From IMG/VR virus record IMGVR_UViG_3300037565_000040, positions 1 through 41,957 of that record: DNA of 41,957 nucleotides; one strand, given 5' to 3'. Position numbers and translations under genes: made by a program. Each line of letters opens with the position of its first letter. Positions within the stretch are counted from its first letter, which is position 1. Positions 679-38,785 of the stretch are shown here, one piece after another. This DNA is from a virus (Duplodnaviria; Caudoviricetes). The notes beneath the pieces are model-generated. The model was not told the origin of the DNA and did no database searches. It saw only the letters and a list, made by a program, of their open reading frames with translations.

Positions 679-920
679 TACACCGGCACCACTGAAATCA
701 ACTGCCCATCGACCTGGACGCTGTTGCGCATGGCCTTGGCCCGACGCTCTGCATCCTCGAAGTCATAGGCAAACAGGTTGAACGTGTATTGTGACCCGTT
801 CATTCGATAGGAAAAGCAGAAGGCGTAGAGAATGCCGCCCTCGCCGTCTGGGCGAATGTGTTCCGGGTCTGGGCCTTCGCGACGGTTACGCTCTGCTGCG
901 AGGTCGATAACGTCGCTCAT
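678..920 (-). CDS. Hypothetical phage protein
   Basis: GGAG RBS before ATG at 920; TAATG overlap with terS. Confidence 0.7.
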   Translation of the reverse strand: MSDVIDLAAERNRREGPDPEHIRPDGEGGILYAFCFSYRMNGSQYTFNLFAYDFEDAERRAKAMRNSVQVDGQLISVVPV

Positions 921-985
921 TGCATTCTCCATTGTTCCAGGCTTCCCACCCGGATTGACGCGAGACACCGCGCGCTGCGGAACAC

Positions 986-1013
986 GAAAAAGCCCCGGCG
1001 CTAACCGAGGCTC
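986..1013 (-). terminator. Rho-independent terminator at the end of the late leader
   Basis: Minus strand reads AGCCTCGG-TTAGCG-CCGGGGCT-TTTT. Confidence 0.7.
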
Positions 1014-1022
1014 TGGTATTGC
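1007..1022 (+). repeat. 16-bp direct repeat, left copy, flanking the moron
   Basis: GAGGCTCTGGTATTGC, identical to 1538-1553. Confidence 0.9.
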
Positions 1023-1055
1023 GAAATTCGGATATTCAGACCCTATTGTATTTTA

Positions 1056-1107
1056 TCCGAAATAATCGGACTTAGGGCTTGCGTTATCCGAATTGTTCGG
1101 ATAGATT
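1056..1107 (+). promoter_or_regulatory. sigma70-type moron promoter with palindromic operators
   Basis: TTGCGT(1079-84)-17 bp-TAGATT(1102-07). The spacer carries the palindrome TATCCGAA-ttg-TTCGGATA (1085-1103); a second TCCGA-N5-TCGGA site is at 1056-1070. Confidence 0.75.
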
Positions 1108-1129
1108 GGTTTCAACAAAGGAGACCGAC

Positions 1130-1339
1130 ATGGCAAAGTTTCAGTGGAACAACGAAGAATTCACAAAGGCCGTCAAGCTGGTAGACAACCTCATGCCTAA
1201 CGCTCTTGAACCCCTGCACGCTGTAATGGGCGAAGCCTTCATGCGTTACGTCGAAGCAGCCGTTTCAATTGGGATACTTCATCGCTGCACAGAAACTAGC
1301 CGCTACTTTGCCATCAACCCTGCATACAAGGCGTCCTGA
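1130..1339 (+). CDS. Moron gene 1, hypothetical 69-aa protein
   Basis: AAGGAG RBS then ATG at 1130; opposite strand to the flanking late genes. Confidence 0.75.
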   Translation: MAKFQWNNEEFTKAVKLVDNLMPNALEPLHAVMGEAFMRYVEAAVSIGILHRCTETSRYFAINPAYKAS

Positions 1340-1340
1340 A

Positions 1341-1538
1341 TTGACCCCCACACAATTCGCCGAATGGCTCGCAGAGATGAAGGCCCGGTTCACCGATATC
1401 AAATCGGACGCCGACTGCGCCCGCCTTCTCGGCAAGTCTGACGACACCATTGTCAGCTACAAGCGCAAAGGCACTGACAGGACTGTTGCTCTCGCTTGCC
1501 GCGCCCTTCTGCATCGTCTTGAACCTTATGGCTCCTAG
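1341..1538 (+). CDS. Moron gene 2, small HTH DNA-binding protein
   Basis: TTG start, (M)TPTQFAEWLAEMK...SDADCARLLGKSDDTIVSYKRKG...VALACRALL; Cro/Xre-like HTH pattern. Confidence 0.75.
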   Translation: MTPTQFAEWLAEMKARFTDIKSDADCARLLGKSDDTIVSYKRKGTDRTVALACRALLHRLEPYGS

Positions 1539-1553
1539 AGGCTCTGGTATTGC
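1538..1553 (+). repeat. 16-bp direct repeat, right copy
   Basis: GAGGCTCTGGTATTGC, identical to 1007-1022. Confidence 0.9.
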
Positions 1554-1560
1554 TTGGGAA

Positions 1561-1637
1561 TGAGGCGGGAGCCGGATTTAGGTTGGTATGCCCTCACATC
1601 CAACACCGTTCGCAATGAGGGATTGCGACCCGCCTCA
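1561..1637 (-). ncRNA. Predicted three-way-junction RNA with complementary (kissing) loops
   Basis: Plus-strand coordinates: P1 TGAGGCGGG/CCCGCCTCA; P2 GTTGG(T)ATG/CATCCAAC with loop CCCTCA; P3 TCGCAAT/ATTGCGA with loop GAGGG. Strand inferred from operon direction. Confidence 0.5.
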
Positions 1638-1737
1638 ACTTATGAGAGCGCCTTGCCCTCTTGTTCTGTGTCGGTCTTCTCGGCCACCGTACCGACAGAA
1701 GTGGTGCAATGCGAACATCGACGCGGCAATAAGACGC

Positions 1738-1923
1738 CTAGTTCACCGCCGACACGCAGCCCATGTCACGTTGATGACCTTGGGCAATTAGAACCTCTCC
1801 AGACTGCTGTTCAGAAACGACGATCAGCGCCCTGCACGCTTCGCCAATTACGCGCTGTTCCGGCTTGAGCTTTTGAAGCGCCGCGATCAGCGATTTAACG
1901 TCCGTGGCATATTCCTTGACCAT
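1738..1923 (-). CDS. Hypothetical protein
   Basis: 61-aa ORF with an AGGAG RBS. Confidence 0.6.
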   Translation of the reverse strand: MVKEYATDVKSLIAALQKLKPEQRVIGEACRALIVVSEQQSGEVLIAQGHQRDMGCVSAVN

Positions 1924-1963
1924 CAGTTCGGCTCCTGCCCTTCGCGCTCTAGGACCGCCTCAA

Positions 1964-2150
1964 AATATTAGTCTGGGGACGCCTTACGGCGCAGCATGGC
2001 TGGAATTGAACCAGCGACCCTTTTGGCGCTACTCGGACCCGGCCTCCGCACTACCAGAGGCGGGCGACCCTTTCGTCTTAATACCGTCGCTCTACCGAAC
2101 TGAGCTACATGCCTACGGGTCAGTGTAACCCGCACCCCAATCTGAATATT
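1964..2150 (-). ncRNA. tRNA-like structured RNA (canonical D and T arms, enlarged anticodon domain, embedded in a four-way junction)
   Basis: Minus strand: GGCAUG-UA-GCUC AGUUCGGUA GAGC-[73 nt]-GCUGG UUCAAUU CCAGC-CAUGCU, flanked by two hairpins and closed by an outer stem. G-U pairs are valid on the minus strand only. Confidence 0.7.
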
Positions 2151-2151
2151 A

Positions 2152-2328
2152 CTACGAAAGCTCTCTGCCTTCCATCTCAATCACAGCGTCCAGCATTTGC
2201 TGCGTCTGCTCTGGTCCAATTGCTTCAATACAGACAGCAGCAATGGCGGCGAACAGTTCTGCGACTTCCTGGGGTTCTGTGATTTCGTGTTCGTCGTCGT
2301 CTTCGTCGGCATTGATGAGGGTGAACAT
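2152..2328 (-). CDS. Small acidic hypothetical protein
   Basis: AGGAGG RBS before ATG at 2328: MFTLINADEDDDEHE... Confidence 0.7.
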   Translation of the reverse strand: MFTLINADEDDDEHEITEPQEVAELFAAIAAVCIEAIGPEQTQQMLDAVIEMEGRELS

Positions 2329-2680
2329 GAAAGCCTCCTGCCGATGGGGTGGGGTGCGCCGTATGCATCCGACGACTTCGCGGAGAGGTAATGGATAACC
2401 CACGGGCCGCGCGCCCTGCTGCCGGAATGTTGGCAGCGACCTCGATGTAAGGGACGAGCGGGCGAACTGTGTGCAAGGATCGCTGGTGAGTGTCTTGCCC
2501 GCTCGATTTGGTGTGAGAGGTGAGACTTGGCCGGTACGGTTGGCCATCACCCACCATAATGGCTCATGAAACCACTATGCGCTTCGGGCTGCTCTCAAAC
2601 TTGGAAATCTAACATCCGGCGATCAACCCGGACGGCCTGTTGTCAGGTCTTAGTCTAGACGCAATAACGTCTATTTTAAA

Positions 2681-2709
2681 AACCTAGCCGCGCCGGTTTG
2701 ATTTGTCAA
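2681..2709 (-). promoter_or_regulatory. pR'-like late promoter overlapping the stop codon of the upstream regulator
   Basis: Minus strand TTGACA-17 bp-TAGGTT. Confidence 0.65.
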
Positions 2710-3293
2710 GCTGCCCGCCGTTTATCCCCAATGCCATAATACTTCGCCAAGGCGTTTAGCCCTTCACGAAGCCAGCCAACCATGTGATGAGCTTCCGTGT
2801 CTCGAATTACGCAGGTGTAGAGCGCGGCATAAATCGCCCCCTGCCCCCGCAATTCGTTCTGGCGCTCCTGAATAGCCAATTGAGCATCGCGCCAGCGCTT
2901 CGTTGCCCGCTTGTAGAACGCAACGTTTTCCTCGGTTACAGAATTGCCGTGAACCCGGTTCAGATCCACCCCGGACGGATCACGCGGCGCTCGAATGGCA
3001 ATCGCGTTATTCCGGTGGTCCTCTAGAAACGCCATAGCGGCCTCGTACTGGCGGGTAGACAGTTCCTTGGCCATGCACAGCCTGCCGACGAAACAACCCG
3101 CTCTCTGGTCACGGCTGTGCTCTGGTGGCACATTGTGAACCCGTATCCTCGCCTCAATGCCAGGGCGAAGCGTTTCGCGTTCGTCTCGCTCCATTCGATC
3201 TTTGACCCGCTCCATTACGTCAGCCTTCTTTCGGGACAGTCGCCCGGATGCTGTTCTGTTGCCTGCTTTTAGCCTTGGTCCACGTTTGCCCAT
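2706..3293 (-). CDS. Putative late-gene regulator (Q position)
   Basis: Last gene of the early operon, just before the late promoter. Basic N-terminus (GRLSR), C-terminal LREGLNALAKYYG. Function inferred from position and resemblance to alphaproteobacterial phage proteins at this locus. Confidence 0.55.
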   Translation of the reverse strand: MGKRGPRLKAGNRTASGRLSRKKADVMERVKDRMERDERETLRPGIEARIRVHNVPPEHSRDQRAGCFVGRLCMAKELSTRQYEAAMAFLEDHRNNAIAIRAPRDPSGVDLNRVHGNSVTEENVAFYKRATKRWRDAQLAIQERQNELRGQGAIYAALYTCVIRDTEAHHMVGWLREGLNALAKYYGIGDKRRAA

Positions 3294-3312
3294 CTTTAGC
3301 CCCTTTGATGGT

Positions 3313-3720
3313 TTAGGACAGAAGGTCGGCAAGGCGGCGTTCAATCCAGCCTCGCTCTTGCTCAAGCATTCTCTCGTAGTTGCGGTCTTGCTGAATGCGC
3401 ATTCTGGAGCTGAGCGAAAATGAGCGCATGGCTGCCAGATCAGGGTCCAGCATGTTAACGCCCATCGTTTTCTTCTCGCGAAGCTTGTCTGCCGCCGACT
3501 TGCCCAAGAGCTTCCTGAGTTGCCCCTGCAAATGCTCGCGCTCGCTATATGGATCGGCTGCGCTTTGCGCGCCCGGTGGCATCCCGCCCATTCCATAAGG
3601 GATGCCAACCCCCGGCACAGACAGGTCAGCCATCGTCTGCGTCACCGCCTCTTTTGCCATTGATGGGCCTGCCGCAAGCGCACCGCCCATTAGTCCGAGA
3701 AAGCCCCTGCGCTTCATCAC
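3313..3720 (-). CDS. Hypothetical protein with a twin-arginine-like N-terminus
   Basis: MKRRGFLGLMGGALAAGPSMA. Confidence 0.7.
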   Translation of the reverse strand: MMKRRGFLGLMGGALAAGPSMAKEAVTQTMADLSVPGVGIPYGMGGMPPGAQSAADPYSEREHLQGQLRKLLGKSAADKLREKKTMGVNMLDPDLAAMRSFSLSSRMRIQQDRNYERMLEQERGWIERRLADLLS

Positions 3721-19897: not shown

Positions 19898-19978
19898 AAC
19901 GGCCATTTCGGTGTAAAATATGCACCGCTTAATGGGCGATTGAGTTGGACGCAAAGGCCCGGAAATGCTAGATTTTAA

Positions 19979-20023
19979 TGGTCGGAGCGGCCGGATTTGA
20001 ACCGACGACCCTTTGTCCCCCAG
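19979..20023 (-). other. attP: attP core: 3' half of tRNA-Pro(GGG)
   Basis: Minus strand CTGGGGGACAAAGGGTCGTCGGTTCAAATCCGGCCGCTCCGACCA, running from the anticodon loop through the T arm to CCA; 81 bp downstream of int. Confidence 0.9.
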
Positions 20024-38712: not shown

Positions 38713-38785
38713 AAGGCCTCCAGACTATTTAGGGGTGTCACCCAAGCGCGAAAGGGTCGCGCGCCCTAGCGTTTCAGCGCGCCCG

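Follow-up and report, generated by a model that had tools for sequence, protein, structure and literature searches.

A tRNA-shaped unit with an insert in place of its anticodon arm and a predicted four-way-junction cap is an optional cassette upstream of the terminase genes of a temperate phage

In the leader of the packaging genes of an uncultured phage, one strand reads as the body of a tRNA from which the anticodon arm is missing and whose acceptor end is flanked by hairpins, which raises the question of what such a unit is, how it came to its place and what its RNA could do. The DNA analyzed (the window, 41,957 bases) is the entire viral record, and its genes for a repressor, an integrase, an Erf-like annealing protein, portal, capsid and terminase mark the phage as temperate. 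Devosia supplies the integrase's best named relative (81%), which makes Devosia or a bacterium related to it the likely host. Among 401 order-level genomes, a close integrase (79%) was found in G256 alone, and the family of this genome, with 243 genomes, was taken as the inferred host family. Adjoining the integrase gene lies half a tRNA, its 3' part with a terminal CCA (~19977-20022, minus strand), presumably tRNA-Pro, which was read as the attachment site.

The unit (1964-2150, minus strand, 187 nt, a predicted ncRNA) sits between a 300-aa gene (2706-3608), for whose protein no named relative was found, and the small terminase gene terS (259-678), on the minus strand. Downstream of it, on the same strand and ahead of the packaging genes, lies a terminator-like site (1014-989); no sigma-70-like promoter was found within 900-3000. 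The 5' neighbor, gene X (2152-2328, minus strand), encodes a 58-aa acidic protein with 28 protein matches including the query and no match to a Pfam, PHROG or NCBIfam family, and its stop codon lies 1 nt ahead of the 5' strand of the outer stem. Besides its presence in this phage lineage, gene X is chromosomal in 86 of the 243 genomes of the inferred host family, single-copy and in constant context (L463-L487), followed there by a pxpB-like gene. On the 3' side of the unit, what is left of gene X's original 3' end (1922-1964, minus strand), recognized by its match to a continuous gene in the relative L188, now bears the RBS of the next ORF. The sequence-only reading had placed the unit after a stop codon and about 30 nt before an RBS; the first distance is 1 nt, and the 30 nt turn out to be the gene X relic.

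Read from its 5' end, the unit opens with the 5' strand of an outer stem (2135-2150, mean pair probability 0.87-0.95), followed by hairpin H1 (2114-2134; 9 bp, 3-nt loop, pair probability 0.94), which abuts the 5' strand of the acceptor stem (2108-2113, tRNA positions 2-7 by Rfam alignment and fold). U8-A9 and the D arm come next (2089-2107, with A14, G15, G18, G19 and A21; the D arm itself 2105-2089), then a 73-nt replacement of the anticodon and variable arms (2016-2088, from fold and repeat analysis) and the T arm (1999-2015, with G53-U54-U55-C56-A57-A58, Y60 and C61, assigned by Rfam alignment, fold and core-base check). The 3' strand of the acceptor stem (1993-1998), after which no CCA is read, abuts hairpin H2 (1979-1992; 5 bp, GUAA tetraloop, pair probability 0.97), and the 3' strand of the outer stem (1964-1978) closes the unit. 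All parts described in the sequence-only reading are where it had placed them, and only the 5' hairpin, present at 2134-2114, needs amending, as its 9 bp are one pair more than claimed.

The acceptor (2113-2108 with 1998-1993) has 6 bp; at the 1:72 position stand A and G, both taken up by H1 and H2, and positions 74-76 read GCC in place of CCA. All 15 pairs in the D, T and 6-bp acceptor stems are intact, as are 17 of 17 invariant or semi-invariant bases of the classical tRNA core, with the anticodon loop and the CCA end left aside. The outer stem, H1, the acceptor and H2 are predicted to meet with zero unpaired bases, forming a four-way junction. The 73-nt insert begins with a weak closing stem, continues with a hairpin of 10 bp (2064-2038; pair probability 0.95 on average) and ends in a normal variable loop (positions 44-48, 2020-2016); a 5-bp anticodon stem with a 7-nt loop occurs in none of the predicted folds of the unit.

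The searches with ARAGORN and Rfam that had been proposed as a check gave 0 ARAGORN genes in the window and a match to the Rfam tRNA model, which spans 2114-1991, leaves the anticodon arm out of the alignment and scores 33.2 bits (cut-off 29, E 0.0004). A decoding tRNA was rejected, as the core bases are present but an anticodon stem-loop and CCA are missing and the acceptor is a 6-bp stem predicted to be sealed: it has 6 bp and not 7, A.G at 1:72, GCC at its end and a trailer predicted to be paired in H2. The earlier judgement that the unit has the shape of a tRNA without being one that decodes is supported. A tmRNA was likewise rejected, with 0 ARAGORN calls, no tmRNA family as best match and no CCA.

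The whole unit folds with a z of -3.14 (1/200 shuffles as good) and the opposite strand with -1.55 (12/200), and this strand difference, the G-U pairs and the GNRA loop favor the minus strand as the RNA; the unit also folds as DNA (z -2.25). When the flanks were shuffled with the tRNA arms enforced, the real sequence reached -73.9 kcal/mol versus -60.7 +/- 3.4 kcal/mol, with 1/400 shuffles as good, and the three flank helices have pair probabilities of 0.87-0.97. In the unconstrained ensemble a misfold is preferred, with pair probabilities of 0.12 for the D arm and 0.40 for the acceptor, and enforcing the tRNA-arm fold costs 1.8 kcal/mol. The 73-nt insert is not more stable than its shuffles, neither in context (110/400) nor alone (245/1000). 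The stem standing in for the anticodon stem is weak (pair probability 0.2-0.3), and a 3-bp mini-hairpin (2077-2066) is predicted at 0.85, yet is broken in the sister contig X8 described below.

The insert itself holds traces of how it may have arisen. A 10-nt direct repeat, AAAGGGTCGC, at 2073 and 2023, 50 nt apart, was matched in 0.6% of 3000 insert shuffles and bounds a division of the insert into 23 + 50 nt. The longer of the two parts has the look of a second run from D arm to variable loop, though a degenerate one (1.8% of 3000 shuffles). When the insert is cut at the repeat, what remains has the usual length of 23 nt and a loop carrying U33, UAA and G37, but 0/5 in-register stem pairs. 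An intron-containing or spliceable tRNA was rejected because removal of the 50 nt restores no in-register pair of an anticodon stem; no intron family in Rfam matched the unit at E <= 10. The case that the sequence-only reading had named as its own refutation, a one-off degenerate tRNA with a 50-nt insertion, holds in part: the insert does split into 23 + 50 nt at the repeat. The probable history is a duplication or fusion of tRNA parts after which the anticodon stem was lost, and the intact elbow core set against 0/5 anticodon-stem pairs suggests that selection may have acted on the elbow only.

The inheritance of the unit was followed in sister contigs, compared in eight (X3-X10) of ten listed runs, leaving aside X1 and X2, which may be the source; in two of the eight (X7, X10) the element is outside coverage. 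None of the ten listed is an RNA run, which carries no information on expression. The contigs of X3 and X5 carry the element without differences (pieces 1688-2160 and 1980-2130). In those of X4, X6 and X9, 1965 is joined straight to 2205/2206 with 6-10 other letters between. These contigs retain gene X, as well as what lies below 1965, and have neither the last 18 codons of this gene X allele nor any of the RNA; the X6 contig comprises 41,273 bases, 255 of them on the shorter side of the joint. The stretch 2152-2205 (minus strand) is a replacement 3' end of gene X that arrived together with the RNA in this phage, and a C-terminus very similar to it occurs in the protein P0003. The right junction of the cassette (1966/1965 in X4, X6 and X9) coincides with the end of the outer stem, the empty site has no target duplication, and the boundaries drawn in the sequence-only reading match the limits of the optional cassette. 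One sister phage, with 6 letters at its empty site where the others have 10, has a gene X cut to 44 aa (P0021, on a contig of 41,273 bases, as long as that of X6).

The X8 contig (18,409 bases) carries 2137-1976 with 4 differing letters (158/162 identical), with unrelated sequence upstream of the RNA; beyond 175 other letters it returns to the window's sequence at 1560, thereby having the RNA without the end of gene X and without the 61-aa ORF. Three of the differences are listed (2042, 2045, 2068), all in the insert: one changes a U-A pair of the long hairpin to U-G, one lies in the bulge of this hairpin and one breaks the 3-bp mini-hairpin; that 3/3 listed differences fall inside the insert has a chance of about 0.09 and is a weak hint. 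By eye, the 5' flank of X8 would pair with the 3' outer strand of the window, given one G-C pair missing on both sides, which is not covariation, as only the 5' flank is visible, and at 4/162 differences X8 appears too close to demonstrate selection. Because of the empty sites in X4, X6 and X9 and the X8 copy between different neighbors, the unit is a discrete, optional and separately inherited phage cassette. The 61-aa orphan ORF (1738-1923, minus strand), for which no homologue was found except itself, was rejected as part of this cassette, since X4 and X6 keep the ORF without the RNA and X8 has the converse; it is a separate, earlier cassette, unlinked to the RNA.

The surroundings are similarly composite. 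The 3' end of gene X is present in the window in three tandem versions, a sign of nested cassettes, each having entered by recombination in gene X; a direct repeat of ~16 nt at 1551 and 1020 (minus strand) flanks a ~530-nt insert that is missing in L188. From this insert and the three gene X ends, the leader is a hot spot of nested cassettes. At the place of the unit, the IMG/VR relatives L187, L188 and L189 carry either different fillers or none, and ordinary tRNA genes were found upstream of terS in 6 of the 60 terS loci that were scanned out of 80 fetched.

Diverged homologues of the unit were sought by sequence, by pattern and by covariance model. With blastn, 59 of 50,697 phage records were matched, none over more than 25% of the query among the 40 matches listed; the matches were short pieces only, those listed almost all tRNA D arms, and plasmids gave 0 matches. 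Patterns run on IMG/VR returned 22 unrelated loci for the GGUCCGAGU motif, 5 loci with different inserts for the tRNA body, and 14 loci, none alike, for the T arm with the GNRA hairpin, and a strict pattern gave 0 matches in metagenomes. A loose GNCGAA pattern, applied to metagenomes and genomes in partial scans (28/64 and 50/64 parts), returned at least 241 loci, the best with a local score of 25 versus 146 for self; 50 bodies without inner T loop, the one in the window included, are by eye mostly archaeal-type intron tRNAs. The model R1, built from one sequence and run on 100, 82 and 25 loci and 5 phage records, scored at most 38 bits on other loci versus 36 for plain tRNA and 236 for self, and matched 0/5 related phage records. 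No match to the unit was found in the 243 host-family genomes (BLAST with 3 candidates scored per genome, and pattern search), and it occurs as one copy per genome. None of these searches yielded a diverged homologue.

Bodies of the same general plan are nevertheless common. A D-arm/T-arm pattern with a long gap matched 83 loci in IMG/VR with 67 distinct middles including that of the window, and 44 of the 67 (43 besides that of the window) have an acceptor with at least 6/7 pairs and a T stem with at least 4/5 pairs around a middle of 59-87 nt, although a few may be tandem-tRNA artefacts. CCA is encoded in 9/44 and missing in 35/44, the window's RNA included. Many of the bodies (for example L014, L019, L021, L024 and L068, by eye) keep a complete anticodon loop 3' of the insert, which the window's RNA does not; in those that keep the loop, the insert lies near position 29/30 (by eye). 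By eye, L014, L016, L019, L020, L021, L024, L068 and L072 (~1490-1625) look like complete phage tRNAs in which 40-60 nt interrupt the anticodon stem on its 5' side, ahead of an intact loop. L053, L066 and L077 (~1490-1620) have, by eye, sealed, extended acceptors and no CCA; they form a distinct group in which a short hairpin comes first, the middle arm is long and the acceptor is lengthened by at least 8 pairs, and had no Rfam match other than tRNA. None of the other long-insert bodies shares the insert of the window's RNA or, by eye on predicted folds, its two abutting hairpins. Pairing from flank to flank reaches 8 pairs in 24/44 elements and was uninformative. On this sequence evidence, tRNA bodies with replaced anticodon arms are widespread in phages, and uncultured phages hold dozens of anticodon-less tRNA shapes that tRNA finders skip or mislabel.

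Among characterized phages, T5 carries two RNAs of 125-144 nt, RNA1 and RNA2, annotated in GenBank AY543070 as 'tRNA-like stable RNA with unknown functions', which by eye share with the window's RNA an acceptor-like stem, a T arm and a longer structured middle replacing the anticodon arm. They differ in standing within the large tRNA cluster of a lytic phage, whereas the window's RNA stands by itself, as an optional cassette, in a temperate phage of 42 kb, and in having ends that are uncapped by flanking hairpins in predicted folds; R1 had no match in the T5 stretch (L201) at E <= 1. T4 rnaC and rnaD (NC_000866; the species 1 and 2 RNAs) are annotated as small stable RNAs and are described as late RNAs with unknown function in PMC9697503. 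Close to its 3' end, rnaC carries a T arm, as the window's RNA does, but both T4 RNAs lie within a tRNA cluster, a canonical D arm is not evident where they are annotated, and R1 did not match them. According to Mukai et al. (PMC5389517), allo-tRNAs are irregular tRNA-like genes of bacteria and phages, some translation-inactive and near toxin-antitoxin genes; they retain an anticodon, and their acceptor branches are of the 8/4 or 9/3 type, in contrast to the 6/5 branch and missing anticodon loop of the window's RNA. The tRNA-like architecture itself is not new, T5 RNA1 and RNA2 being so annotated; new here are the predicted sealed acceptor and the single-RNA cassette. No published description of this RNA or of a four-way-capped tRNA mimic was found in a literature search with subscription journals, older T4/T5 papers and supplements outside its scope.

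The closest working analogue, judged by architecture, is the YrlA Y RNA (RF02553), which according to Chen et al. 2014 (PMC4201824) is circularly permuted, running from a 5' motif through V, T arm and acceptor loop to the D arm, with its ends in the Ro60 module, and is found in bacteria and phages adjoining Ro60. Both RNAs have a D/T elbow, a closed acceptor, no anticodon loop and an extra module at the anticodon position; in YrlA, however, the T arm precedes the D arm and the acceptor is closed by a loop, whereas the window's RNA has the normal order and a predicted four-way-junction closure. The YrlA model gave 13.3 bits on the unit versus a cut-off of 69, on the D arm only, YrlB (RF02565) had no match in the unit, and Ro60 (TROVE) was found 0 times in the phage and as one partial match in the 243 host-family genomes. 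Of the motifs named in the same paper (PMC4201824), the insert holds that of YrlA, GNCGAAN0-1G (2077-2070, internal; 15.6% of shuffles, 93 copies in the genome), and that of vertebrate Y RNAs, GGUCCGA (2039-2033; 2.9% of shuffles), the two together occurring in 0.4% of 20000 shuffles, with the motifs picked after seeing the sequence. Bulged helices presenting either motif have a probability of at most 0.01, and a Y-type bulged helix between the 3' strand of H1 and the GGUCCGA stretch was rejected at a probability of 0.00. A phage Ro60-Y RNA system has been described (PMC12135203), which requires a gene that the phage of the window is without.

Our preferred reading, held tentatively and with somewhat less than even confidence, is that the RNA of the unit is a stable, unchargeable tRNA look-alike that baits a host protein recognizing tRNA shape. 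We infer that it would be transcribed as part of the leader region upstream of the terminase genes. As tRNA-processing enzymes need a 5' leader and a 3' trailer, the four-way cap would hide both and protect the RNA from RNase P and CCA addition, the outer stem would shield its ends from exonucleases, and the elbow would be the sole normal tRNA surface left exposed, through which, together with the new arm, a host tRNA-targeting defense or quality-control enzyme could bind. The 17/17 core positions, the gap-free cap (1/400), the discreteness of the unit, the tRNA-bearing slot in relatives and the wide occurrence of such bodies, with the annotated T5 RNA1 and RNA2, support such an elbow decoy. 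Most known enzymes that attack tRNA do so at its anticodon loop or CCA end, both missing in the unit, and the anticodon-nuclease decoy of the sequence-only reading, in particular, would be without the loop that such enzymes cut. A report (10.64898/2026.07.10.737580) counts against a decoy as well: a cleavage-resistant phage tRNA supplemented the pool and neither inhibited the OLD tRNase nor shielded host tRNA from it. Also against it are an insert that folds no better than its shuffles and a junction at the base of the stem that could just as well reflect recombination at a DNA fold-back. This report, the lack of a diverged homologue and the fact that no target or partner of the RNA was identified are the strongest counter-evidence to the bait. 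Rather doubtful is a wider version, in which temperate phages trade single-RNA cassettes via the leader hot spot and the unit is a non-cleavable, non-chargeable trap for a tRNA-targeting defense enzyme; if true, it would amount to an RNA-only counter-defense and give the tRNA-like RNAs of T4 and T5 a testable job.

The main rivals are a passenger and a cis-acting leader element, with an antisense regulator, fold-back DNA and a Ro60 partner less likely. The unit may have no function at all, being a decaying chimeric tRNA gene (from a 50-nt duplication or a two-fragment fusion) shuffled through a hot spot of small cassettes, to which we give an appreciable, if minor, chance: the 10-nt repeat (0.6%), the degenerate second D-arm-to-variable-loop stretch (1.8%), an insert no more structured than shuffles, the missing diverged homologue and a region full of short optional inserts with three tandem gene X ends all point that way. 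Random decay should, however, also strike the D and T arms, yet 17/17 bases and 15/15 pairs are intact, and it leaves unexplained the gap-free cap (1/400), the coincidence of the cassette edge with the outer stem's end, and the lone recurrence in X8. That the unit acts in cis on the leader upstream of terS, through RNA stability, RNase P/E processing or read-through of the terminator at 1014-989, fits its place 1 nt past a stop codon on the strand of the terminator-like site before the packaging genes, as well as the recurrence of neighboring stem-closed modules (2505-2455, 1638-1561) in relatives; RNase P is also stated to cut one closed-acceptor Y RNA in PMC4201824, where a 7-bp stem is given as the likely reason that just one of three Y RNAs is cut. 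With a stem of 6 bp and a leader and trailer both predicted to be paired, the RNase P/Z processing signal put forward in the sequence-only reading is disfavored by inference, and viable-looking sister genomes (X6, 41 kb) without the unit and with unchanged neighbors, together with the other neighbors in X8, make a cis-acting role unlikely.

A trans-acting antisense regulator, with the tRNA body as frame and the pairing sequence in the replaced arm, would resemble the C4 RNA of P1, which acts in an antisense manner, its loops being complementary to sites flanking its gene and upstream of the anti-repressor. The phage does have an anti-repressor region, and 12 nt of the insert, which overlap the repeat, are complementary to a leader at 38749-38760 (minus strand), 37 nt upstream of the gene after portal. 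Such regulation is nonetheless quite improbable, as genome-wide matches of 10-, 11- and 12-mers are not above shuffles (6%, 12%, 29%), the anti-repressor region has no match of at least 10 nt, Rfam C4 is not matched at E <= 10 and the X8 change at 2068 falls inside the complementary 12-mer. Very improbable, too, is a gene-less fold-back mobile DNA (MITE-like) with tRNA-derived sequence by chance, which would account for the imperfect terminal inverted repeat, the precise presence or absence, the different flanks in X8 and the folding as DNA (z -2.25), but not for a single copy per genome, an empty site without target duplication, an allelic gene X end brought along as recombination would do, or termini that diverge more from X8 than the interior. 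The Y-RNA-like scaffold of the sequence-only reading, an un-permuted Y RNA whose anticodon arm is a Ro60-binding module, draws on the joint occurrence of both motifs in the insert (0.4% of shuffles, chosen post hoc). Given their single frequencies (15.6% and 2.9%), presenting helices at 0.01 or less, the normal order of the arms, the YrlA score (13.3/69 bits) and the TROVE counts (none in the phage, one partial match in 243 genomes), it is very improbable as well.

For the bait reading and its rivals alike, near-identical phages with and without exactly this protein-free unit provide a natural control. If the RNA proves expressed and protective, tRNA shape alone can be a counter-defense; if inert, the unit is a record of tRNA gene remodelling in a phage recombination hot spot.

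Two further structured elements of the leader were recorded beside the unit. The module at 1638-1561 (minus strand) is well-folded (z -3.6) and closed by a conserved stem, TGAGGC...GCCTCA, around an interior that varies throughout, and such a module precedes a terminator-type hairpin in L187, L188 (2849-2921), L189 (2897-3015) and the distant L490 (4772-4834); no Rfam family was matched by it in the window or in the loci of the relatives. A second stem-closed module (2505-2455, minus strand, z -3.6) lies upstream of gene X, and its counterparts across L187, L188 and L189 comprise two that are near-identical and a third with a changed interior.
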